A stretch of 64,000 nucleotides of DNA. Origin: an uncultured Clostridia bacterium (GTDB lineage: Bacteria; Bacillota; Clostridia; Christensenellales; QALW01). The stretch is from contig CAUDEY010000001.1 in the NCBI GenBank assembly GCA_958448705.1, positions 177,924 to 241,923 of the forward strand. Direction: 5' to 3'. The notes beneath the pieces are model-generated. The model searched no databases, was not told the origin of the DNA, and saw only the letters and a list, made by a program, of their open reading frames with translations. Positions 3,004 through 52,885 of this stretch are shown one piece after another (within the stretch, counting starts at the first letter, position 1; each line of letters opens with the position of its first letter). The translations under genes and the position numbers were made by a program.

Positions 3004-3705
3004 CTAATTTTCCACAAACTCAGCCAAACACTTTTTATAGGCGGCAACCGGATCCTCGGCCGCCGTGATCGGCCGGCCTACCACGATGTAATCCGCCCCC
3101 AGCTCCTTGGCACCGGCGGGCGTTGTAATACGCTTTTGGTCACCGGCATCCCCTCCGGCAAAACGCACACCGGGCGTAACAGTGCAAAAGCCACTGCCGC
3201 AGCGCGCATGCACGCCGGCCGCCTCCAAGGGCGAACATACAACACCATCCAGCCCCGCATTCTTTGCGTTTTCCGCGTAGTGCATCACCACTTCCTCTAT
3301 CGGAGCGTCAATCAAAAGCTCGTCTTTCATGCGCGCCTGATCGGTAGAGGTCAGCTGGGTAACCGCAATCAAAAGCGAACGCGTTCCGTCGGGACGAGTA
3401 AGCCCCTCTAAGGCGGCTTCCATCATCGCGCGGGTGCCCGCCGCATGCAGGTTGCACATATCGACCTCCAGCTTAGAGAGTACAGCCATCGCCTTTTTAA
3501 CGGTGTTCGGGATATCGTGCAGCTTTAAATCCAAAAAGATTTTATGCCCCCGTTCCTTGATTTCCCGTACAATGTCCGGTCCCTCGGCATAATACAACTC
3601 CATGCCGATCTTTACAAACGGTTTTTCCTCACAAAACCTATCCAAAAACGCCATAACGGCCTGTTTACTGTTAAAATCACAGGCAACAATTACATCCTTA
3701 CCCAT
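3004..3705 (-). CDS. pyrF: orotidine 5'-phosphate decarboxylase
   Basis: 233 aa with the DLKLHDIPNT motif. Confidence 0.9.
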   Translation of the reverse strand: MGKDVIVACDFNSKQAVMAFLDRFCEEKPFVKIGMELYYAEGPDIVREIKERGHKIFLDLKLHDIPNTVKKAMAVLSKLEVDMCNLHAAGTRAMMEAALEGLTRPDGTRSLLIAVTQLTSTDQARMKDELLIDAPIEEVVMHYAENAKNAGLDGVVCSPLEAAGVHARCGSGFCTVTPGVRFAGGDAGDQKRITTPAGAKELGADYIVVGRPITAAEDPVAAYKKCLAEFVEN

Positions 3706-4618
3706 TTTCGTGCGCTCCTCCTATTATGTCTGTTAAATTTTGAATGCCGTATTTCTCCATAACGCGAGGCAGGCTCAAAACAATATCCCGGCAGGCGTAC
3801 GGGTTCACCAAATTAGCGGCTCCTACCTGTACCGCCGAAGCGCCAGCCAGCATCATTTCGACTACATCTTCGGCACTGTTGACGCCGCCCATACCCATAA
3901 TGGGAATATCCACCGCTTCAAACACCTGGTATACCATCCGCAGGGCTACCGGAAAAATTGCCGGGCCGGAAAAACCGCCCATTTTATTGGCGATTATCGG
4001 CTTTTTACGCGCAAGGTCGATGCGCATGCCCAAAAGAGTATTTACTAAACTCAAGCCATCCGCTCCCGCCTCCTGGCAGGCCAGCGCAATTTCGGCAATG
4101 TCGGTAACATTCGGCGTAAGCTTAATGATCACAGGTTTTGTCGTAACCGCCTTTACGGCACGGGTCACTTCAGCCGCGGCTTTCGGGTCCGTACCAAAGC
4201 TGATGCCGCCGCCGTGCACGTTAGGACAGCTGATATTTACTTCAATCAGCCCCACCTGCTCCTGCTTGTCCATCTCATGGCAGCAATAGGCATACTCCTC
4301 TACCGAAAAACCGCCGATATTGGCGATAACGGGCTTGGAAAATATCTTTTTTATCTGCGGCAGTTCTTCCTTGATCACCCGCTCGATACCCGGGTTTTGC
4401 AGGCCTACCGAGTTGATCATTCCCCCGGTGCACTCTGCAATGCGCGGCAGAGGATTTCCAAAGCGCTCCTCGCGCGTCGTCCCTTTAAAAGAAAAGGAAC
4501 CTAACAGATTGATATCGTACAGCTGGGCAAATTCCCTGCCGTAGCCAAAGGTGCCGCTGGCAGGAATGATCGGGTTCTCCAGCTTTAAGCCACAAAAGGT
4601 AACGGCCGTATTTACCAT
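3698..4618 (-). CDS. pyrD: dihydroorotate dehydrogenase B, catalytic subunit
   Basis: Class 1B DHOD sequence (NPIIPASGTFGYG, ISCPNV). Start taken at ATG 4618, which overlaps the pyrK stop (ATGGTAA). The ORF-track N-terminal extension was rejected. Confidence 0.9.
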   Translation of the reverse strand: MVNTAVTFCGLKLENPIIPASGTFGYGREFAQLYDINLLGSFSFKGTTREERFGNPLPRIAECTGGMINSVGLQNPGIERVIKEELPQIKKIFSKPVIANIGGFSVEEYAYCCHEMDKQEQVGLIEVNISCPNVHGGGISFGTDPKAAAEVTRAVKAVTTKPVIIKLTPNVTDIAEIALACQEAGADGLSLVNTLLGMRIDLARKKPIIANKMGGFSGPAIFPVALRMVYQVFEAVDIPIMGMGGVNSAEDVVEMMLAGASAVQVGAANLVNPYACRDIVLSLPRVMEKYGIQNLTDIIGGAHENG

Positions 4619-42578: not shown

Positions 42579-42607
42579 TTGACAATTTCTATGTTTGGTG
42601 ATAAAAT
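42579..42607 (+). promoter_or_regulatory. promoter of the SCIFF operon
   Basis: TTGACA, 17 nt, TAAAAT, with an extended -10 TG. Confidence 0.55.
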
Positions 42608-42639
42608 TCTTTTATAATGTTGACAAAAGGGGGATTTTT

Positions 42640-42789
42640 ATGAAAAGAATACAAACGCTCAATACCCGTGACCTTGCAGAAAGTGCTGTCAATGGCGGCT
42701 GCGGTGAATGCCAAACTTCCTGTCAATCAGCCTGCAAGACTTCCTGCGGTGTCGCCAATCAGCCTTGCGAGAACAAAAAAAGCAAGTAA
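42640..42789 (+). CDS. scfA: SCIFF (six-cysteines-in-forty-five) ranthipeptide precursor
   Basis: 49 aa: MKRIQTLNTRDLAESAVNGGCGECQTSCQSACKTSCGVANQPCENKKSK. RBS AAAGGGGGA. Six Cys in the C-terminal half. Confidence 0.9.
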   Translation: MKRIQTLNTRDLAESAVNGGCGECQTSCQSACKTSCGVANQPCENKKSK

Positions 42790-42856
42790 TCAGCTCTTGT
42801 AAAGCTGTGCCGCTTACTCTTTGGAGCAGGCGGCATTATGTTTGTTTGGAGAATCT

Positions 42857-44224
42857 ATGATACATCAATATAAATTAAACGGATATAATATCGTGCTCGA
42901 TATTTTCAGCGGTGCAGTCCATGTGGTAGACGATGTGGCCTATGATATCATCGCTCTTTTTGAGAACTGTCCGAAAAACGATATCATAAAAACTATAACT
43001 GCGCGCTATCCTGAAATCACCGAAGCCGATGTGGTGGAATGTCTTGAAGATATCCAGGCACTGAAAACAGACAAAAAGCTATTCACCCCCGATGAATATG
43101 CCGATAAGGCATTTGATCTGAAAAAACGGCATACCGCGGTAAAAGCACTTTGCCTGCATGTGGCGCATACCTGTAATTTAAACTGCGAGTACTGCTTTGC
43201 CAGCCAGGGAAAATATCATGGCGACCGGGCGCTTATGAGCTTTGAAGTAGGCAAACAGGCGCTTGATTTTCTGATTGCTTCATCCGGAAAAAGAACCAAT
43301 CTTGAAGTAGATTTTTTCGGCGGTGAGCCTCTTATGAACTGGGCGGTTGTAAAAAAACTTGTTGCATATGCCCGAAGCATTGAAAAGAAATGTCATAAGA
43401 ACTTCCGGTTCACGTTAACAACAAACGGTGTTTTGATCGATGACGATGTCATTGATTTTGCCAATAAGGAAATGCACAATGTTGTACTGAGCCTTGACGG
43501 ACGCAAAGAGGTCCATGACAAGCTGCGCAAAACCATAAACGGCGGCGGCAGCTATGATGTGATCGTACCTAAATTTAAAAAATTTGTGGAAGCACGGGGC
43601 AACAAAAATTATTATGTGCGCGGCACGTTTACACGAAACAATCTTGACTTCACAAAGGATATTTTCCATATGGCGGATTTAGGTTTTACGGAGCTTTCCA
43701 TGGAACCAGTGGTATGCGCGCCAAATGACCCCTATTCCCTCAAAGAAGAGGATCTGCCCGTGCTATTTGAGCAATATGAAATATTGGCCAAAGAGATGCT
43801 GAAACGCCGAAGAAACGGGAACGGCTTTACGTTTTACCATTATATGATCGATCTTTCCCATGGGCCGTGTATCTACAAACGCATATCCGGATGCGGCTCG
43901 GGAACGGAATATTTAGCCGTTACCCCATGGGGTGAGCTTTTCCCGTGCCACCAGTTTGTAGGAGACCCTAAATACAGCATGGGTAATGTATGGGACGGTA
44001 TTACCAACACTGCCCTGCGCGATGAATTTAAGCTTTGCAACGCCTATACCCGGTCCGCCTGCAAAGATTGCTGGGCCAAGCTTTATTGCTCCGGCGGCTG
44101 CGCGGCCAATGCCTACCATGCAGAAGGAAGCATCAAGGGCATATATGAATACGGCTGTAAACTGTTTAAAAAGCGGATGGAATGTGCTATTATGATGCAG
44201 GCGGCTCAGGCCGGGGAAAAGTGA
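42857..44224 (+). CDS. scfB: radical SAM/SPASM SCIFF peptide maturase
   Basis: CNLNCEYC radical-SAM motif and a C-terminal SPASM Cys cluster (CKDCWAKLYCSGGCAANA). Immediately follows scfA. Confidence 0.9.
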   Translation: MIHQYKLNGYNIVLDIFSGAVHVVDDVAYDIIALFENCPKNDIIKTITARYPEITEADVVECLEDIQALKTDKKLFTPDEYADKAFDLKKRHTAVKALCLHVAHTCNLNCEYCFASQGKYHGDRALMSFEVGKQALDFLIASSGKRTNLEVDFFGGEPLMNWAVVKKLVAYARSIEKKCHKNFRFTLTTNGVLIDDDVIDFANKEMHNVVLSLDGRKEVHDKLRKTINGGGSYDVIVPKFKKFVEARGNKNYYVRGTFTRNNLDFTKDIFHMADLGFTELSMEPVVCAPNDPYSLKEEDLPVLFEQYEILAKEMLKRRRNGNGFTFYHYMIDLSHGPCIYKRISGCGSGTEYLAVTPWGELFPCHQFVGDPKYSMGNVWDGITNTALRDEFKLCNAYTRSACKDCWAKLYCSGGCAANAYHAEGSIKGIYEYGCKLFKKRMECAIMMQAAQAGEK

Positions 44225-44435
44225 ACAAAAAGAAATACAAAAATAAAATTTTACTGCACCGGGTAAAGAAAACAGCCCGGACAAAACGGGAGGTTCCGTC
44301 TAAAGGCAACCGCCCTTTTTTTTATGCCTAAAACAGCAAAGCTTTCGCATCCCATAAAAGAATATTTTATACAAAATCAAAAGTCGGTTATCCTAACAAA
44401 TGAAGTATAAAAGCCATATCAAAAAGGAGATCAAT

Positions 44436-45278
44436 ATGATAAAAACAGCACAAATAACCACACAGTTGACAGCCTATATATCCTATTTAAAGGAATCGGA
44501 GCGAAGCTGTGCTACCCAAACGCAATATTACAGAGATGTCCGCCGTTTTCTTTCCTGGGCCGGCGACGCCGCTCTTGCAAAGGAAACCGTCATCCGCTAC
44601 AAAGAAATGCTGCAAGCGGAATATAAAGCAGCAAGTGTAAATGCAAAGCTGGCAGCGATCAACAGCTTTTTTTCTTTTTTAGGAAAAAACGAGCTGCGCG
44701 TAAGACAGTTAAAAATTCAAAGACAGGCATACTGCTCAAACGAAAAAGAACTGGCAAAGAATGAATATCTGCGTCTGGTAGAAGCGGCAAAGGAGCAGAA
44801 AGATGAAAGACTTTCTTTATTGCTGCAAACTATCTGCAGCACCGGAATCCGTGTTTCCGAACTGCAATATATTACCGTGGAGGCCATAAAACTTGGCGAA
44901 GCAGCCATCTGCATGAAAGGAAAAAATCGAACGATCCTGATTCCCGGCAAGTTGCGCAAAGCATTGTGGGAGTATTTACAGCGGCAAAATATTACCTCCG
45001 GTCCTATCTTTATTACAAAAAACGGAAATCCTCTAGACCGCTCCAATATCTGCAAAAAAATGAAAGCCTTATGCAGCAGCGCGGGCGTAGCGGCAAAAAA
45101 GGTTTTCCCCCACAACCTGCGCCATCTGTTTGCCCGGTGTTTTTACGCTTTAGAAAAAGACATTGCCAAGCTAGCAGATATCCTGGGACACAGCAGCATT
45201 AACACTACACGCATTTATATCGTATCTACAGGGCTGGAACATCGCCGGCAAATGGATACGCTCGGCCTTATTTTATAA
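44436..45278 (+). CDS. stand-alone tyrosine site-specific recombinase (XerC/D-like)
   Basis: ATG 44436 follows AAAAGGAG. Catalytic signature present: R (TGIRVSEL), HNLRH, LGHSS, TRIY. Confidence 0.85.
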   Translation: MIKTAQITTQLTAYISYLKESERSCATQTQYYRDVRRFLSWAGDAALAKETVIRYKEMLQAEYKAASVNAKLAAINSFFSFLGKNELRVRQLKIQRQAYCSNEKELAKNEYLRLVEAAKEQKDERLSLLLQTICSTGIRVSELQYITVEAIKLGEAAICMKGKNRTILIPGKLRKALWEYLQRQNITSGPIFITKNGNPLDRSNICKKMKALCSSAGVAAKKVFPHNLRHLFARCFYALEKDIAKLADILGHSSINTTRIYIVSTGLEHRRQMDTLGLIL

Positions 45279-45325
45279 ACCAAAAAATAAAAACAGAGGC
45301 TTTTAAAGCATCTGTAATAAAAAGG

Positions 45326-45351
45326 CACCACATAATCGTCATTATGTGGTG
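45326..45351. repeat. left inverted repeat (recombinase-site-like palindrome with an asymmetric core)
   Basis: CACCACATAAT-CGTC-ATTATGTGGTG. Confidence 0.8.
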
Positions 45352-45555
45352 TGAAGTGTTTATTAAATATAGGTGTTTCATTTTCAAAAGCTGTTTTAAA
45401 AATAATCTTATTAACAAACAGCATATAAAAAGATTTAAGAAAGAAGTATGGAATGAACGCCTTTCCTAAAAATAGAAAAAACTCGGATAGGCTTAATTGT
45501 TGTGTGTAAAAAGAAAAGCCATCCGGCAGATGGATATCAAAAAGCTTAAATTATA

Positions 45556-45584
45556 TTGACAGTATGCAAAAAATCCTCTATACT
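45556..45584 (+). promoter_or_regulatory. sigma-70 promoter inside the IR-flanked segment
   Basis: TTGACA (45556-45561), 17 nt, TATACT (45579-45584). Confidence 0.6.
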
Positions 45585-45630
45585 ACAATAGAATTTAAAG
45601 TGAATATATAACTGCTATTGATTTAAAAAA

Positions 45631-45653
45631 CTACATAATGACGATTATGTGGT
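45631..45653. repeat. right inverted repeat
   Basis: CTACATAAT-GACG-ATTATGTGGT. Positions 45633-45653 are the exact reverse complement of 45327-45347. Confidence 0.8.
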
Positions 45654-45745
45654 ATTTTCAACACAATCATCGGGAAAGAATATTTCCGTCTGATTGTAGT
45701 GTGTTTTATATCTTTTGCAAAAACATTTTCACATAAAGGAGTGTT

Positions 45746-47971
45746 ATGATGGATTTAAAAACAAAGTGCAAAAAATTAGCCATTCTCTTATTCTGCTGTA
45801 TTTTCACGCTGCTTTGTCTGACGAGTTTCTCGCTTTCAGTCAACGGAGCCCCGGAAGAGAACAGCTTCACCGTAACAGATGAAAACGGTAATCCCGTCTC
45901 TCCCGATGGCAACGGCCTTTATACGCTTACCTCCGGCAGCTATACCGCTGCCGGCACAACACGCAGCCACGGCATAAACATCATAGGCGACGTAACATTA
46001 ACGCTTCATAATGCTATGATCGACCTCAGTGCTATAACCATTGAAAATGCTGCGCCCGGAATCGGTATTGCCCAGGGAAAAGTAACCCTGATTTTAGAAG
46101 GAGAAAATACCGTAAACGGCGGATCCGGATTTGCGGGCATTTACGTTTCCGAAAAAAGCTCGCTGACTGTCTCCGGGCAAGGCGCACTGGCTGCCCGTGG
46201 GGGCGACGGTAAAAAAAGCGGTTCCTATTCTAACAAATGGCATGGTATTTTTACCAGTACAAGATGTTATTTCGGCGGAGCCGCCGGAATCGGCGGCAAC
46301 GGTCTCTGGCTGTACAGCAATGATACTTGGGTTGCAAATTCTGTACCCAGTTTTGGAACCATCCTTATTGAAAGCGGAAACATCACAGCGCAGGGCGGAA
46401 AAGCAAATATCACAAACGCCGGTGCCGGCGCCGGTATCGGTGCGGGCGGCAGTTCCAGCCAAAAAAATATCCACTACTCCTTTACCGGCACAATAGCCAT
46501 TAAAAACGGAACCGTAAAAGCCGTCGGCGGTATGGGGGAAGATTTTTCGCTCACCCTAGGCGGCGCAGGCATTGGGTCCGGCGGAGTCGGGGGCAACATC
46601 TGGGTTCCCTACCATAACGAAATAAAATTCTCTATAAGCGGCGGAACCGTTACCGCAGCAGGCACTGCCGACGGTGCAGGTATCGGCGGCGGTGCTAATG
46701 TAAACGGCGGTATCATAGAAATTTCCGGCGGAACCGTTACCGCAACCGGCGGCTACGAAACAGAAAATGGGCAGCAGTCCGGACACTGGGGCGGTGCGGG
46801 TATCGGCGGCGGCGATAACGGCGGTTTGACCTCCGTTTTGATATCAGGCAACGCCAAGGTCACAGCAAAAGCAATCGGAGCGGCGGCCGGTATCGGTGCA
46901 GGCTGTGACGGTTTTGTCGGTACGATCGATTACGATACCGAACAGATGACCTATGGCGGTATTACCATCGATTCCATGGCAGAGGTAACCGCGTCAGGCG
47001 GTTCCAATCCAAGCAAAAAAGTCGGCGGCGCAGGAATCGGAGCCGGATGCAGTTATAATTTTGACAACGGCTTCGGTCATATCTCCATTACGGGGCAAGC
47101 AAAAGTCCGGGCTTACGCCGGTGCGCGCGCTCAGGCAATCGGTGTAGGCTCCGATTACGCGGGCGACGATCCCAATACGTTTAGGGTAGGAACAAAATCC
47201 ATTGATGTTTGGATGTTCAATCAGGATACCGCGCAGACTGCATTCTGGGGGCAAAATGAAGCCGGCAGCGAGCTTACCGAAGATTTTGTTACTGCGGGCG
47301 CACAAGCTGTTTGGTATACGTTTCCCCAAGGCGAAACTTTCCCCGATACAAATACCGTTTTACCGGCTTTTATAAGCCCGGATGCCAAAGCGCTTTTCTG
47401 GCAGCATACCACAAATGGAACCGTACAGCTTTTACAAGATACGCAGTCTGTTGCCGAATGTACCTATCGGGGCGATGGCTTTACCACTTTGGGGAACTGG
47501 GCTGCTTTCTTCTCTCCCGCCGAAACCGGTAATCTGATCGTTTCTCAAACAACAGATATCTCGGATGATGCAAATAAAGATTTTTCCTTTACTGTAATCC
47601 TGGATGATTCTGATATTAACGGCGCCTACGGTGATATGATCTTTTCCGGCGGAACGGCTTCTTTTACTCTGAAAAGCGGGGAAAGCAGAACGGCCTTGAA
47701 CCTTCCGGCGGGTATCTCCTATAAAGTGGAGGCAATGATGCCGGACGGATATACTATTGCAGCCAGGAATCCTTCAGGAATCCTTCCAAGCAACGAAACA
47801 GTACAGATCTCCTTCCGTATTCAAAGAGCCGGAACACCGTCAACGCCAAAACCTTCCGATGACAACTCGCCCCCTTCCTCTACCGGCGACAGCATCGGCC
47901 TATCACTTTGGCTTTTGCTGTTAACCGGTGCGGGACTCCTTCCTCTTTGCTTGAAAAAGCAGAACAGATAG
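45746..47971 (+). CDS. Gly-rich beta-helix-repeat cell-surface protein with a Cna-B/SpaA-like domain and a C-terminal sorting-signal-like tail
   Basis: Signal peptide. About 8 units of I.ISGG.VTA.GG...GAGIGGG. The C-terminus is PSSTGDS, a hydrophobic helix, then KKQNR. Confidence 0.7.
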   Translation: MMDLKTKCKKLAILLFCCIFTLLCLTSFSLSVNGAPEENSFTVTDENGNPVSPDGNGLYTLTSGSYTAAGTTRSHGINIIGDVTLTLHNAMIDLSAITIENAAPGIGIAQGKVTLILEGENTVNGGSGFAGIYVSEKSSLTVSGQGALAARGGDGKKSGSYSNKWHGIFTSTRCYFGGAAGIGGNGLWLYSNDTWVANSVPSFGTILIESGNITAQGGKANITNAGAGAGIGAGGSSSQKNIHYSFTGTIAIKNGTVKAVGGMGEDFSLTLGGAGIGSGGVGGNIWVPYHNEIKFSISGGTVTAAGTADGAGIGGGANVNGGIIEISGGTVTATGGYETENGQQSGHWGGAGIGGGDNGGLTSVLISGNAKVTAKAIGAAAGIGAGCDGFVGTIDYDTEQMTYGGITIDSMAEVTASGGSNPSKKVGGAGIGAGCSYNFDNGFGHISITGQAKVRAYAGARAQAIGVGSDYAGDDPNTFRVGTKSIDVWMFNQDTAQTAFWGQNEAGSELTEDFVTAGAQAVWYTFPQGETFPDTNTVLPAFISPDAKALFWQHTTNGTVQLLQDTQSVAECTYRGDGFTTLGNWAAFFSPAETGNLIVSQTTDISDDANKDFSFTVILDDSDINGAYGDMIFSGGTASFTLKSGESRTALNLPAGISYKVEAMMPDGYTIAARNPSGILPSNETVQISFRIQRAGTPSTPKPSDDNSPPSSTGDSIGLSLWLLLLTGAGLLPLCLKKQNR
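46361..47152 (+). repeat. degenerate coding repeats (GAGIG beta-helix units) within the surface-protein gene
   Basis: Recurring ISGGTVTA(A/T)G ... G(A/G)AGIG(G/A)G about every 35-45 aa. Confidence 0.6.
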
Positions 47972-48177: not shown

Positions 48178-49902
48178 ATGGATCTTTCTTTTACCAAAGC
48201 AATGGACGCTGCCGGCAAGGTTTTTCAAGTACCGGTCGCCTGCACAAAAACAGATAACAAAATTTCAGTTCTGATAAAAAAAGAAGATATTACCGGTGCA
48301 GCACAGGTGGATATTCTTCCCCAATTATCCGATACCCCCTGCGGAGAAGGTTATTTTGCCGTACCTATGCTGCATCGCAGTTATCTTACCTATTTTAAGC
48401 CGCGGCAGGATTTCTGCGAGGATACGCTGCTTTTCAGTATGCCCTTTTACGGAGTAAAACGGCCCGGAGAATGTTTTATCGTTCTGCTGGAAGGTTTGGC
48501 GCCGGAAGCCCGGCTGTATCAAAGCTATCACCGGGGAAGCTATCGCATCTGCTTCCGTTTTGACTTTCAGGCCGACTCCATTGTTCCTTATGACGATATT
48601 ACCCTGCAAATTATTTTTCTTGCTCCCGATGCGGATTATAATGCTATGGCCCGCGCTTACCGGGAATATCAATACGCGCATGGCCTGCAAACGATTTTAG
48701 AAAAAAAGCGTAAAGCGGTAACCTATGCAGCCGAAGCGCCGGAAATCCGCTTGCGGCTGGCCTGGAAGCCCGTACCGACGCCGGTGGAGGAGCAAACGCC
48801 CGCCACCGAACCGAGCATGCACGCGGCCATCTCTTTTGACCGGCTGAAAGGAATCATGCTCCGAATGCACAAAGCCGGTATAGAGAAGGCGGAATTATGC
48901 TTGGTCGGCTGGAACCAAAAAGGACATGACGGAAGGTACCCGCAGCTTTTTCCTGTAGAAGAAGCTTTAGGCGGTGAAAAAAAGCTGAAAGAAGCGATTG
49001 CTTTGGGACAAAAGCTGGGCTATCAGATTACCGCCCACAGCAATTCCACCGATACTTACCGCATTGCGGACTGTTTCAGTGAGGAAGACGTCCTCAAAAA
49101 GCCTGACGGTTCCCTTAGTGCCAACGCCACCTGGAGCGGCGGCAGGATGTATAACCTCTGTCCCCGCGCGGCACTAAAACAGGCGGAAGAAAACCTGCCG
49201 CGTATCCGTGCACTTGGCTTTGAAGGGCTGCACTACATCGACGTACTTTCCATCGTTCAGCCACGAGCCTGCTTTGATAAAGCGCATCCTGTCAACCGCA
49301 GCGAATGTGTGGCTCTTTGGCGAAAAATCGCTTCGCTTTCCCAAAAGCTTTTCGGCGGCTTCGCCTCCGAGGGCGGCTGTGATTTCTTGGCTCATGAGCT
49401 TGACTTTGCCCTATATGCGGGCTTTTCCGCCTTTACAGCCAAGCCGCTGCCCTTCCAAGATGCGTTGATTCCTCTTTGGGAGCTGGTATACCACGGTTCT
49501 ATTTTATACTGCCCCTCTACCGAGCTGGTAAACGCCACACTGGGTGAGAAAAAATTTCAGCTAAAGCTGATTGAATACGGCGGCAGACCCGTTTTGTATT
49601 TCTATGCACGCTTTGTTACCCCCACCGGCAGCAGAGGCAACTGGATGGGCGAGAACGACCTTTTATGTGCCACCGATGCCGAACTGGATGCCGCTGTTGC
49701 CAAGATAAAAGAAACCTATGATCTCTACCGCGCGGTATGCCCTCTGCAATACGCCTTTATGGAAGAGCACCGAATGCTCACTCCCGACGTTGCTGCAGTA
49801 CGATATTCTGATAACAGCACGGTGGTAGTCAACTATGGAAGTGTGCCGTTTTTCTATCAAGGCATCTCTGTTCCTGCAGAGGATTTCGTCGTTCTCCAGT
49901 AG
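48178..49902 (+). CDS. cytoplasmic protein of unknown function, possibly a glycoside-hydrolase-like TIM barrel (DUF5696-like, from memory only)
   Basis: 574 aa with no signal peptide. RBS AAAGGAG. Co-directional with and just upstream of the GH2 gene. Confidence 0.35.
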   Translation: MDLSFTKAMDAAGKVFQVPVACTKTDNKISVLIKKEDITGAAQVDILPQLSDTPCGEGYFAVPMLHRSYLTYFKPRQDFCEDTLLFSMPFYGVKRPGECFIVLLEGLAPEARLYQSYHRGSYRICFRFDFQADSIVPYDDITLQIIFLAPDADYNAMARAYREYQYAHGLQTILEKKRKAVTYAAEAPEIRLRLAWKPVPTPVEEQTPATEPSMHAAISFDRLKGIMLRMHKAGIEKAELCLVGWNQKGHDGRYPQLFPVEEALGGEKKLKEAIALGQKLGYQITAHSNSTDTYRIADCFSEEDVLKKPDGSLSANATWSGGRMYNLCPRAALKQAEENLPRIRALGFEGLHYIDVLSIVQPRACFDKAHPVNRSECVALWRKIASLSQKLFGGFASEGGCDFLAHELDFALYAGFSAFTAKPLPFQDALIPLWELVYHGSILYCPSTELVNATLGEKKFQLKLIEYGGRPVLYFYARFVTPTGSRGNWMGENDLLCATDAELDAAVAKIKETYDLYRAVCPLQYAFMEEHRMLTPDVAAVRYSDNSTVVVNYGSVPFFYQGISVPAEDFVVLQ

Positions 49903-50050
49903 CGCAATTTAGTGCAGATATGCAATATAATTCTATTGACCTTGATTTCTGTAATTGCTATAATGATTTATTGATAAGAGTATATTGATCTTTTCTCTTC
50001 CTATTCTTACCGAAAGCCTAAATCAATTTTATTTTATTCAGGAGGCTATC

Positions 50051-52885
50051 ATGAAGCGTTATTATGAGGACCCCAAAAAAACGAGCCTGAACAGGCTGAA
50101 GCAGCGATGCTACTACATCCCCGGAGGTCAGGCGGAATACACCTTGCTTAACGGCCTGTGGGATTTTGCCTTTTTTGAAAACGGCGACGCCGCAGGCGAG
50201 CCTGAAAAATGGGATACCATAAAGGTGCCTTCCTGTTGGCAGCTCTCCGGTTACGAGCATCCGAATTACAGCAATATCAACTATCCCTACCCGTGCGATC
50301 CTCCCTATGCGCCGGATATCAATCCCGCAGGAATCTATCAGCGCAATATTACCGTAAACGACACCTCAAAGCAAACATATCTTATTTTGGAAGGGGTATC
50401 TTCCTGTGCGGAAATCTATGTAAACGGTGATTTCGTCGGCTTTACCCAAGGCTCGCATCTTCAGGCAGAATTTGATATCACCGGCTTTGTTCATGCCGGA
50501 ACAAATTCTTTAAGAATCAAAGTATACAAATGGTGCTGCGGCAGTTATTTAGAGGATCAGGACTTTTTCCGCTTCAACGGTATTTTCAGGGATGTATACC
50601 TTCTCTCACGGCCCAAAGGTCATTTGACCGATATTGCGCTTTCTGTAAACGGTAATGACATTCTGATAAAAACCGATCAAAAAACAGAGGTCTCCCTCTA
50701 TGACGGCGAAACGCTGTTAGAGCAGAAAACAATCCATAAAAACGGCAGCTTTACCGTACAAAACCCGAAAAAATGGAATGCAGAACAGCCGAATTTATAC
50801 ACACTGATTTTTAGCTGTGCAGGCGAAGAGATCGTGCAGAAAATCGGTTTCCGTGAAATCACGGTATCCGAAAAGGCCGAACTGCTGATCAACGGCTGCC
50901 CTATCAAGCTGCGGGGCGTCAACCACCACGATACCACCCCGCACGGCGGCTGGTGCATGACTAACGAGGAGCTGTATAAAGACCTGCTGCTGATGAAAGA
51001 ACTCAACATCAACGCCGTGCGCACCTCTCACTATCCGCCCTCTCCGGTCTTTTTAAACTACTGCGACGAACTGGGCTTCTATGTGGTTTTAGAAACAGAT
51101 ATCGAAACGCACGGTATGACGCGCACCGTTCCTAACACTGCAAACTGGGGGCATGCATGGGAGCCGCAGCCGTACTGGCCTTCTCACGATCCTAAGTGGC
51201 GTACCGAAATGGTACAGCGTATGGAACGCGCTTTTGAGCGGGATAAAAACCACTGCAGTATTCTCATGTGGTCTACCGGCAACGAAAGCGGACACGGTCC
51301 GAACCACGAGGCGATGATCCAATGGCTGCGTGAACACGATACCAGCCGCCTGGTGCACTGCGAGGACGCCAGCCGTTTTGAAATGAGCGACCATGCCGAT
51401 GTATATTCCAGAATGTACCTCGCCCCCTCTGTTTTAGAAGAAACCGCCCTGGATGACGTACATACTCAGCCCATTATGCTGTGCGAATATTCCCACGCCA
51501 TGGGTAACGGCCCGGGCGATCTGTGGCAGTACTGGGAAAAGTTTTTAAAATACCCGAATTTGATCGGCGGCTTCATTTGGGAATGGACCGATCACACCGT
51601 GATAGAAAACGGCGTTGCCAAATACGGCGGTGACTTTGAAGGCGAGCTGACCCACGACGGAAACTTTTGCTGCGACGGCCTTACTTTTGCCGATCGCAGC
51701 TTTAAAGCCGGCAGTTATGAAGCCCGTGCCGCTTACGCCCCTTTCCGATTTGAAATCAAAGGCGGAAAAATCCATTACAAAAACTGGTTTGATTTTAACG
51801 ATATGTCCGCCTACGACGTTCGCTACCGTATTACCTGCGACGGCGCCGTTTTAGAGGATAAAACGGTAAAACTGACGGCAAAGCCACGGCAGACAGCCGT
51901 AATAACGCCGGAGCATGCTCTGCCCGAAACTTGCCGTCTCGGGGCTTCGGCGGAGGTATTTTTGCTAAAGGACGGTAAGGAAATCGCCCGGCTGGAGACG
52001 CCCCTTCGGTGCAGAATCCTGCCGCAGGAGCTTCCCAAAACGCTTTGTCCGCTTACCGAAGATGATTTTCATATTTACGCCCGCGGCGAACGTTTTTCCT
52101 ATGCTTTCTCAAAGCAATACGGCTGCTTTGACAGCATTGTAATCAGCGGCAAGGAACAGCTGCAGGCACCGGGTAAAGTAACAGCTTTCCACGCTCCTAC
52201 GGACAATGACCGTCACATGGTCCCATTCTGGATGTTTATAAACATTTGGCAGGGAGAGAATTTGGATCGTGAATTTCAAAAGACCTATACCGCCGAAATC
52301 AAGGACGGAATGATTCAGGTAAAGGCCAGTGTAGCGGGCGTTTCCCATCGGCCGTACTTCCGGTATGGGTTAAGCGTCTCCATCTTTGCCGACGGCACCA
52401 TAAGGTTTCATATGCGGGGCAATATTGCCGAAACCACGCCGTTTCTGCCCCGCCTCGGCTTTGAATTCAAGCTGCCGAAAGAAAACAATGCGTTCCGCTA
52501 TTTCGGCTATGGGCCTTTGGAGAGCTACTGTGATATGCTGCACCATGCCGCGCTGTCTTACCACGAAAACACGGCGCAAAAGGAATATGTTCCTTATGTA
52601 TACCCCCAAGAGCACGGAAATCATACCGGCGTAAAACAGCTTGAGATCGGTGCCATGATATTTACCTGTGAAAAGGGTATGGATATCAATGTTTCCCAGT
52701 ATTCTGCACACCAGCTGTACCAGGCAAAGCATACCGACGAGATCGGTGAAAGCGACGGTGTTTATTTGCATCTGGATTATAAGCACTCCGGCCTCGGCTC
52801 TAATTCCTGTGGACCAAAAATCCCGCCCGAATTTTCTTTAAGCGAAAAGCACATTGATTTTGCATTCACTATGGCAATCCGCTGA
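50051..52885 (+). CDS. GH2 beta-galactosidase (LacZ-like)
   Basis: NAVRTSHYPP, WSTGNESG, CEYSHAMGN and a C-terminal small-chain domain. ATG 50051 follows GGAGG. Confidence 0.85.
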   Translation: MKRYYEDPKKTSLNRLKQRCYYIPGGQAEYTLLNGLWDFAFFENGDAAGEPEKWDTIKVPSCWQLSGYEHPNYSNINYPYPCDPPYAPDINPAGIYQRNITVNDTSKQTYLILEGVSSCAEIYVNGDFVGFTQGSHLQAEFDITGFVHAGTNSLRIKVYKWCCGSYLEDQDFFRFNGIFRDVYLLSRPKGHLTDIALSVNGNDILIKTDQKTEVSLYDGETLLEQKTIHKNGSFTVQNPKKWNAEQPNLYTLIFSCAGEEIVQKIGFREITVSEKAELLINGCPIKLRGVNHHDTTPHGGWCMTNEELYKDLLLMKELNINAVRTSHYPPSPVFLNYCDELGFYVVLETDIETHGMTRTVPNTANWGHAWEPQPYWPSHDPKWRTEMVQRMERAFERDKNHCSILMWSTGNESGHGPNHEAMIQWLREHDTSRLVHCEDASRFEMSDHADVYSRMYLAPSVLEETALDDVHTQPIMLCEYSHAMGNGPGDLWQYWEKFLKYPNLIGGFIWEWTDHTVIENGVAKYGGDFEGELTHDGNFCCDGLTFADRSFKAGSYEARAAYAPFRFEIKGGKIHYKNWFDFNDMSAYDVRYRITCDGAVLEDKTVKLTAKPRQTAVITPEHALPETCRLGASAEVFLLKDGKEIARLETPLRCRILPQELPKTLCPLTEDDFHIYARGERFSYAFSKQYGCFDSIVISGKEQLQAPGKVTAFHAPTDNDRHMVPFWMFINIWQGENLDREFQKTYTAEIKDGMIQVKASVAGVSHRPYFRYGLSVSIFADGTIRFHMRGNIAETTPFLPRLGFEFKLPKENNAFRYFGYGPLESYCDMLHHAALSYHENTAQKEYVPYVYPQEHGNHTGVKQLEIGAMIFTCEKGMDINVSQYSAHQLYQAKHTDEIGESDGVYLHLDYKHSGLGSNSCGPKIPPEFSLSEKHIDFAFTMAIR

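Follow-up and report, generated by a model that had tools for sequence, protein, structure and literature searches.

A promoter inverton, probably a fim-like phase-variation switch, between an Xer-like recombinase gene and a surface-protein gene in an uncultured Clostridia bacterium

Background

The phase variation of surface structures has been well studied in Bacteroides, Escherichia coli and Clostridioides difficile, and to our knowledge little work of this kind exists on the Clostridia that inhabit the human gut, which are abundant and for the most part uncultured. The subject of this work is a locus of one such uncultured human-gut Clostridia bacterium, contained in a stretch of 64,000 nucleotides (contig CAUDEY010000001.1 of assembly GCA_958448705.1, positions 177,924 to 241,923; hereafter the window), at which two short inverted repeats enclose an intergenic segment between a tyrosine recombinase gene and a surface-protein gene. 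A preliminary description of the window had put this segment forward as a candidate invertible promoter.

Two described systems are especially relevant to this locus, the cwpV switch of C. difficile and the fim switch of E. coli, the latter depending on IHF and Lrp. The fimS element measures ca. 300 bp and holds only a promoter, the recombinase gene is found immediately upstream, and the surface gene is toggled by promoter orientation (PMC5903667, PMC2784873). The cwpV switch is a 195-bp segment with imperfect 21-bp inverted repeats, located upstream of the gene of a cell-wall protein; its promoter lies outside the switch, and the OFF state has been explained by an intrinsic terminator in the transcript (PMC2784873). 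The gene of its recombinase, recV, came to light in a test of seven candidates and not through its adjacency to the switch (PMC2784873), and several sites, unrelated to one another, are targets of RecV (PMC5903667).

The locus studied here resembles fimS in its length, in the promoter-like site that it encloses and in having a recombinase gene upstream and a surface gene downstream, and we conclude that it most probably is a promoter inverton, a fim-like phase-variation switch for the surface protein. The finding is real, the on/off switch is of a classical type, and it is well supported: as in other promoter invertons, short inverted repeats surround an intergenic segment for which both orientations are found in nature, with the sequence otherwise identical. 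The locus represents a clean case, with both states documented, and also a simple one, made up of one gene, two 24-nt sites and one promoter. Because of this simplicity it could be tested directly in E. coli, and the pair of site and recombinase could serve as a compact genetic switch.

Results and discussion

Both orientations of the segment are present in public assemblies

Contigs carrying the locus were gathered from public assemblies by exact look-up of the recombinase protein, of its 292-aa gene-call variant and of the exact surface protein, additional contigs were obtained from a site scan of metagenome contigs, and every contig was aligned to two templates, the window as it stands and a version with positions 45341-45639 flipped in silico. 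Besides the window, six contigs of the same species were found in the orientation of the window, hereafter ON (L001, L003, L006, L051, L052 and L053), and 13 in the flipped orientation, hereafter OFF (L002, L004, L005, L008, L013, L014 and L056-L062), coming from many independent samples; L017, too divergent to be scored, was excluded from this tally. Identity was complete over 600 of 600 nt between L001 and the window orientation, and likewise (600/600) between L002 or L004 and the in-silico flip. BLAST alignments rendered collinear flanks with 99.7-99.9% identity and a match in reverse, at 100%, for 45327-45653. Moreover, L005 (OFF junction, SRR19040444) and L006 (ON junction, SRR19040448), whose two samples belong to one series, do not differ at any position over 3,912 nt of flank, in which both are equal to the window. 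A comparison of the locus across related assemblies, suggested in the preliminary description as a check, has therefore found the same organism with both orientations and no other difference in sequence, which supports its proposal of an invertible promoter segment bounded by crossover sites and sequenced in the ON state.

The sequence of the sites in the flipped contigs is also informative. The two 24-nt sites of the window have a lone mismatch (G at 45348 versus T at 45632). In the flipped contigs the sequence is ...ATTATGTAGT at the left site and ACCACATAAT-GACG-ATTATGTGGT at the right one, so that the inner arms have swapped sides and the mismatch, which moves with the segment, is found on the opposite sides. 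Since the inner-arm mismatch travels with the segment, strand exchange takes place within the core or at most 7 nt into the inner arm. The segment inverts, and its boundaries are exact: the DNA truly exchanged takes in the inner arms (ca. 45341-45639), and the switch extends over 303 bp from site to site.

The positions at which some contigs end bear on whether both states coexist. L007 and L063 stop at 45347, immediately ahead of the base that tells the two junctions apart, L054 and L055 start at 45633, which is the first shared base on the other side, and L005 and L006 terminate exactly 30 nt past the start of the site (45356). Logan assemblies use k=31, and a k=31 graph would branch or merge at these six contig ends only if both junction types coexisted, which argues for both orientations being mixed within samples. 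These contig breaks and the identical flanks suggest that switching may occur within a clone. It should be taken into account that the assemblies used as reference mostly hold the OFF state, and often break at these sites.

The scan of metagenomes with an 18-nt site rendered 25 loci, only three of which belong to this species (L013, L014 and L017). Most of the others are single sites in short contigs that carry no recombinase gene, as would correspond to chance matches or to other dif-like elements. In two metagenome contigs, L012 (25-42 and 3481-3498) and L016 (159-176 and 3532-3549), the core ACATAAT-CGTC-ATTATGT is present as inverted pairs ca. 3.4 kb apart, and the interval between the two sites of L016 contains the genes of two distantly related tyrosine recombinases (27-31% identity). 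These pairs may represent larger invertible or mobile elements with a similar dif-like site.

Architecture of the recombination sites

The two sites had been reported to be exact reverse complements over 21 nt, as indeed they are (45327-45347 versus 45633-45653), and a repeat finder extended them to 24-nt arms that are 96% complementary with a spacing of 279 nt. They are unique in the 64 kb: the 24-mer, with <=3 mismatches allowed, is found at only 2 places in the window, 0 of 100 shuffles had any match, and the chance expectation for such an inverted-repeat pair is none. Each site consists of 10-nt palindromic arms (ACCACATAAT / ATTATGTGGT) flanking a 4-nt asymmetric core, CGTC in the left site and GACG in the right one, and the pair is inverted, as was described. 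It is because of the core and of the single arm mismatch, and of nothing else, that the pair can be called inverted rather than direct. Coordinates of the sites and of the remaining features are summarized in Table 1.

Table 1. Features of the switch and of the adjacent genes in the window
Feature	Coordinates	Strand	Remarks
Xer-like tyrosine recombinase gene (280 aa), presumed invertase	44436..45278	+	PF00589 and PF02899 above cut-offs
Left recombination site, ACCACATAAT-CGTC-ATTATGTGGT	45327..45350		Outer arm 45327-45336, core 45337-45340, inner arm 45341-45350
Interior of the invertible segment	45351..45629		279 bp; in L002 and L004 present in reverse with 100% identity, the flanks being collinear
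Weak hairpin and T-tract of the preliminary description	45509..45533	-	Meets simple terminator rule; -5.9 kcal/mol, z = -1.4
Predicted sigma-70-type promoter, TTGACA-17-TATACT	45556..45584	+	Score 11/12, best in region
Right recombination site, ACTACATAAT-GACG-ATTATGTGGT	45630..45653		Inner arm 45630-45639, core 45640-45643, outer arm 45644-45653
Ribosome-binding site of the regulated gene, AAAGGAG	45737..45743	+	Read from sequence; conserved in L036
Regulated gene, putative surface adhesin	45746 (or 45749)..47971	+	741 aa (740 from second ATG)

The layout of the sites had been likened to that of lox or FRT. It is indeed that of a crossover site for a tyrosine recombinase, but it is better described as dif/Xer-like, with arms of ca. 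11 nt that end in CATAA / TTATG and a 6-bp central TCGTCA, which corresponds to an alternative parse of the site as GCACCACATAA-TCGTCA-TTATGTGGTGT. The dif site of E. coli is GGTGCGCATAA-TGTATA-TTATGTTAAAT, and the inner CATAA / TTATGT is common to it and to the site in the window. The symmetry of the arms would suit a single-recombinase system of the Xer type, such as XerA or XerH. A search of the published literature for the site sequence rendered nothing relevant.

Two other functions were considered for the palindromic sites. That they are repressor operators or plain terminators was rejected as their main function, since the segment demonstrably inverts. That they are att sites of a prophage or an integrative element was also rejected, since species whose recombinases are 72-90% identical retain the same gene order (SCIFF, radical SAM, recombinase, surface gene, DUF5696, GH2); no other integrase or phage genes flank the locus within the window.

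The recombinase

The preliminary description had noted a stand-alone recombinase gene with an intact catalytic signature ending 48 bp upstream of the left site, and this was confirmed. The Pfam domains of its product score well above their cut-offs, PF00589 (Phage_integrase) with 93 bits versus 27.1 and the N-terminal SAM-like PF02899 (Phage_int_SAM_1) with 33.3 versus 22.3. All the residues of the R-K-H-R-H/W-Y signature of the tyrosine recombinase superfamily are present (R139, K163, H226, R229, H252 and Y261), align with the XerA/XerD motifs, and are invariant across the ten recombinases of the family described below. The nearest solved structures are those of XerA (5hxy), an XerC-like protein (4a8e) and XerD (1a0p), with alignments that span the active-site motifs. 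On the other hand, the best NCBIfam matches are all below cut-off (XerA, 147 versus 220; XerC, 120.5 versus 335; XerD, 117.4 versus 330), and there is not a single dif-type site at the terminus but two inverted sites, 303 bp apart, just downstream of the gene. As judged from its sequence, the recombinase is Xer-like but not an orthologue of XerC, XerD or XerA. The models of the FimB/FimE type gave even lower scores (NF007370, 30.6 versus a cut-off of 221; NF007371, 24.1 versus 222), and the recombinase lies outside the FimB/FimE protein family, although the switch would work like fim.

Directly upstream of the recombinase gene, the window contains the gene of a SCIFF six-cysteine peptide and that of a radical SAM/SPASM maturase (42595-44224). 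This synteny is retained in L036 and L037, and has no evident tie to the switch.

Promoter, hairpins and leader

The near-consensus promoter that had been noted within the segment was confirmed (Table 1), and it is the sole site of such quality on the + strand in 44200-45800. It is outward-facing, its -10 element ends 45 bp before the right site, and in the window it is aimed at the surface-protein gene. The promoter scan found no + strand promoter-like site between the right repeat and the start codon, and a weak 9/12 match on the + strand upstream of the recombinase gene. When the intergenic regions of three species were aligned, conservation was limited to islands at the two sites and at the ATTGACAGTA...TATACTA promoter. 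These data support that the window is in the ON state, in which the surface gene would be driven by the interior promoter.

The preliminary description had also proposed that a minus-strand hairpin of the interior blocks read-through into the surface gene after inversion. This hairpin passes a simple terminator rule at 45519-45533 but is not statistically supported (Table 1), and such a block appears doubtful; a similar hairpin is found in L036. The left site itself could have a role of this kind. In the window, L041 and L045 it was marked, together with a T-tract, as a terminator-like element of the minus strand; its hairpin reaches 45326-45351, CCTTTTTATT follows it on the minus strand, and its RNA would fold with -10.5 kcal/mol on the minus strand of the flipped (OFF) sequence and with -15.7 kcal/mol on the + strand in the state of the window. 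It could halt transcription from the OFF-state promoter reading antisense into the recombinase gene. In the ON state it is the right site that would sit inside the 5' untranslated region. A comparison of 44200-46000 with the Rfam families rendered one sub-threshold chance match only, with no riboswitch or known leader.

The putatively regulated surface protein

The product of the regulated gene is a secreted protein that has a signal peptide, Gly-rich beta-helix repeats, a DUF7601 domain (48 bits in Pfam) and a C-terminal hydrophobic anchor with a basic tail, whereas Beta_helix_3 is found just under the cut-off (26.6 versus 27 bits, E = 7e-6). The beta-helix part is also found elsewhere fused to SLH, Flg_new, choline-binding and dockerin modules and, because it recurs with such varied anchors, it is a surface-displayed passenger domain. 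The protein also matches, though weakly, the C-terminus of pilus ancillary protein 1.

When the surface protein was compared with its counterparts P0159-P0162, identities of 98, 68-69 and 57% were found, against 99, 86-90 and 72% for the recombinases of the same lineages. The surface protein thus diverges faster than the recombinase, as expected for an exposed antigen. In L004, an OFF contig, the gene carries two substitutions and a nonsense change, L117* (equivalent to ca. 46094 in the window), which could represent the decay of a silenced gene or a low-coverage error, coverage being 4.9x. Downstream of the regulated gene and on the same strand, the window encodes a DUF5696/GH101-like protein and a GH2 beta-galactosidase (48178-52885).

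A module of recombinase gene and site pair in other lineages

The exact 20-nt site was found at only 2 loci in a 596-Gb genome collection, in an Oscillospiraceae and a Eubacteriales metagenome-assembled genome. Each is located directly downstream of a homologous recombinase gene (52% and 55% identity), and the interiors and downstream genes are unrelated to those of the window. Seven further homologues (61-90% identity) all showed the same layout, with a site pair that encloses 220-355 bp and is followed by cargo genes. Hence, in 10 of 10 recombinase lineages (the window plus nine, with 52-90% identity) an inverted site pair starts 6-135 bp past the stop codon of the recombinase gene. Across them the arms are conserved, the interiors and the cargo differ, and the core, found in five versions (CGTC, TTGT, CGGA, CTGC and CACT), is always asymmetric. 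The cargo is surface-related in nine of the ten (the window and eight others); several examples are shown in Table 2, to which the SLH/cohesin-like protein of L010 can be added.

Table 2. Site and cargo of recombinases homologous to that of the window
Recombinase	Identity (loci) or taxon	Site	Cargo
P0002	90% (L036)	Same CGTC core	735-aa DUF7601 protein
P0004	72% (L037-39)	CCACAGAAT-CGTC-ATTATGTGGTA	732-aa DUF7601 protein
P0062	Christensenellaceae NSJ-63	ACCACATAAT-TTGT-ATTATGTGGC	Signal peptidase and 1,552-aa Cna_B/collagen-binding protein
P0084	Mediterraneibacter intestinipullorum	CACCACATAAT-CGGA-ATTATGTGGTA	Rrf2 and 1,715-aa protein
P0056		CATAAT-CTGC-CTTATGTTGT	1,015-aa Chlam_PMP/DUF7601 protein
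P0020		TCATAAT-CACT-CTTATGTGGTAA	HU, signal peptidase and 2,095-aa SpaA/Gram_pos_anchor protein
P0115		CACACAAC-CTGC-ATTATGTGG	Sortase and 1,312-aa protein

Four of these loci (L009, L037, L041 and L045) have a single strong promoter site each (10-11/12), outward-facing and separated by 34-45 bp from one of the repeats. All four promoter sites are directed towards the recombinase gene, which is the equivalent of the OFF state, and L064, L072 and L073 look alike by eye. The window and L036, which are the ON cases, are the unusual ones.

Some loci depart from this layout. In L046 and L048 (3844-3869), which belong to the species of L045 and carry recombinase P0084, the invertible segment is precisely absent (263 bp shorter), and there is a residual hybrid site, CACCACATAAT-TCCC-ATTATGTGGTG, which combines two outer arms, one from each of the left and right sites, with a core that is one base off TCCG. 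It is a promoterless locked allele, a deletion product that is unexpected for inverted sites. L072 (3391-3789; P0020, GCA_965348455.1) has three sites. Two of them are direct copies, complete at 3391-3413 and partial at 3479-3494, the third (3767-3789) is inverted, and after each direct copy there is a minus-strand TTGACA-17-TATAAT promoter of its own, so that this duplicated module of site and promoter could undergo two alternative inversions or a deletion. Finally, L040 (1240-4240; P0004) agrees with L037 over the recombinase gene and the left site and for 100 bp into the interior, and beyond that point phage-like genes (RVT_1, DUF4376 and a GH25/LysM lysin) replace the rest of the switch. 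Either the contig is chimeric or the switch has received an insertion.

A broader interpretation can be put forward only tentatively, since we would stop short of favouring it. The switch could be a member of a large, functionally uncharacterised family of Xer-derived systems of gut Clostridia, of the type one recombinase, one switch, whose lineages with a taxon name belong to Oscillospiraceae, Christensenellaceae and Mediterraneibacter. A single recombinase, symmetric dif-like arms conserved across families (..CCACATAAT / ATTATGTGG..) and a lineage-specific core that sets the orientation would make up a principal phase-variation device for the sortase-dependent pili and wall-anchored adhesins of Gram-positive gut commensals. 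In such a family, the core might insulate paralogous switches from one another, and the OFF-state promoter, facing the recombinase gene, might feed back on switching. A signature consisting of an Xer-like recombinase of 275-280 aa followed by CCACATAAT-N4-ATTATGTGG pairs could help to detect adhesins and pili subject to phase variation in metagenomes, with no need to map reads.

Proposed mechanism and alternative explanations

The following mechanism can be proposed for the switch. The adjacent 280-aa Xer-like recombinase would bind the four near-identical arm half-sites of the two dif-like sites, probably alone and as a homotetramer, and strand exchange would take place across the asymmetric central region (TCGTCA; CGTC against GACG). 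Because the cores are antiparallel, the segment of ca. 300 bp between the sites would be inverted. In the ON state, the strong outward sigma-70 promoter would transcribe through the right site and a leader of ca. 155 nt into the gene of the beta-helix/DUF7601 surface protein. In the OFF state, the promoter would face the 3' end of the recombinase gene, its transcript may be terminated by the left-site hairpin and T-tract, and the surface gene would be left with no recognisable promoter. The parts of this scheme that go beyond the inversion as observed, namely the enzyme responsible, the activity of the promoter, the roles of the terminators and switching within a clone, are inferred.

Several points weigh against this interpretation. 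All the data are assemblies, and co-existing sublineages of fixed orientation would produce contig breaks and identical flanks like those that we ascribe to clonal switching. Each of the nine other lineages has been assembled in one orientation (seven clearly OFF, L036 ON and L010 unassignable). The evidence for promoter activity is the match to the consensus, and L010, a member of the family, has no promoter-like site by the same rule. Termination at the site hairpins would be modest (-10.5 kcal/mol), and the OFF-state hairpin of the left site is weak on the + strand (-5.2). Last, the recombinase has been assigned to the sites by adjacency and co-conservation, and recombinases of C. difficile encoded elsewhere can drive switches of this kind (PMC5903667).

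It could be the case that the inversion is real but is carried out by a recombinase encoded elsewhere, the adjacent gene having another or an assisting role. Such a situation has its precedent in RecV, since in C. difficile several unrelated switches are inverted by one recombinase, whose gene lies apart from most of them (PMC5903667), and the portion of the genome visible here is limited to 64 kb. We consider it unlikely, however, since the arms co-occur with an adjoining gene of the same recombinase family in all ten lineages, at the short distances from the stop codon given above, while the rest of the locus differs. Moreover, the exact site is found genome-wide only beside members of the family, and its perfectly symmetric arms fit a single-recombinase system of the Xer type (XerA, XerH).

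That the two orientations represent a fixed polymorphism among strains, left by one old inversion or by rare events, with no ongoing programmed switching and a recombinase that is now idle, seems quite improbable. The finding of zero mismatches over 3.9 kb between contigs with opposite junctions is difficult to reconcile with it, as are the 600/600 identity of ON and OFF contigs outside the inversion, the six contigs that break exactly at the boundaries of the shared repeat, implying both junctions within single samples, and the clear conservation of sites, promoter and catalytic residues across lineages. In its favour, in addition to the evidence coming solely from assemblies and to the other species being found each in one orientation only, the contigs with a 99%-identical variant of the recombinase (P0001) are all OFF.

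It is very unlikely, in our opinion, that control is exerted through the structure of the transcript (termination or leader folding, as in cwpV or flgB) and not through the orientation of a promoter, the TTGACA-17-TATACT sequence being incidental or secondary. The cwpV switch operates in that way (PMC2784873), the site hairpins and the interior hairpin pass the simple terminator rule, and L010 lacks a promoter-like site. Against it, no promoter-like site of comparable quality is present on the + strand upstream of the switch, except for the weak 9/12 match before the recombinase gene; furthermore, the promoter hexamers are conserved and the surrounding interior is not, the outward geometry of the promoter recurs in four distant lineages, and the interior hairpin is non-significant. 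Finally, although inverted repeats can confuse assembly graphs and several of the contigs have low coverage (1.7-5x), a mis-orientation of the segment by the assemblers is hardly conceivable, since the 21-nt shared repeat is shorter than every k-mer used (31 to 127), so that a pure population would give an unambiguous path, both orientations appear in many independent assemblies made with different assemblers, and the inner-arm mismatch is swapped exactly as real recombination predicts.

Comparison with known systems

The promoter inverton described here has in common with cwpV/RecV the Clostridia class, a recombinase of the XerC/D family, imperfect inverted repeats and a short segment just upstream of a phase-variable surface gene. 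The resemblance to that system indicated in the preliminary description holds in this loose sense only, since in cwpV the promoter is external and recV was not found by adjacency (PMC2784873), whereas the locus in the window has its promoter within the switch and a recombinase gene that adjoins the site and is co-conserved with it. A cwpV-type arrangement, with a promoter upstream of the segment and an OFF state due to a terminator, was not found at this locus, in which the promoter-like site is interior and the interior hairpin lacks statistical significance.

A 2025 catalogue of the invertons of the defined gut community hCom2 includes an inverton group 139, made up of 33 invertons, 32 of them from Clostridia, in 17 strains, nearly all of which are beside a tyrosine recombinase of invertase group 35 (PMC11892184). 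In Clostridium sp. D5 the inverted repeats have 26 nt and enclose an interior of 205 bp, in Intestinimonas they have 14 nt and enclose 227 bp, and shifts in orientation were observed in culture (PMC11892184). The family of the window, which agrees with group 139 in dimensions, taxon and adjacent tyrosine recombinase, is probably the same. That work is a catalogue and, in its available part, it does not discuss a dif-like architecture, a variable core or an adhesin or pilus cargo (PMC11892184).

With regard to the Xer/dif systems, among which archaeal XerA, Helicobacter XerH and streptococcal XerS work as single recombinases, the locus shares the arms CATAA / TTATG and a 6-bp centre, and the best sequence matches of the recombinase are XerA, XerC and XerD. 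It differs from them in having two inverted copies of the site beside the gene instead of one site at the replication terminus, and in the inversion of a promoter instead of the resolution of dimers; no link to FtsK is evident for the switch in the window. The promoter invertons of Bacteroides, dependent on Mpi, a serine recombinase that acts on many loci, or on tyrosine invertases of the Tsr type, are also invertible promoters that control surface structures in gut commensals, but they belong to another phylum and have a different promoter consensus, different inverted-repeat motifs and recombinases of different clades. Some tyrosine invertases are encoded beside their switch (PMC11892184 and references therein).

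In functional terms, the closest known system is fimS. In contrast to fimS with its FimB and FimE, the locus in the window has one recombinase gene and not two, its product is Xer-like and has an N-terminal SAM-like domain, the recombination sites are dif-like palindromes of 24-26 nt and not 9-bp repeats with flanking half-sites, and the host is a Clostridia bacterium of the Gram-positive type.

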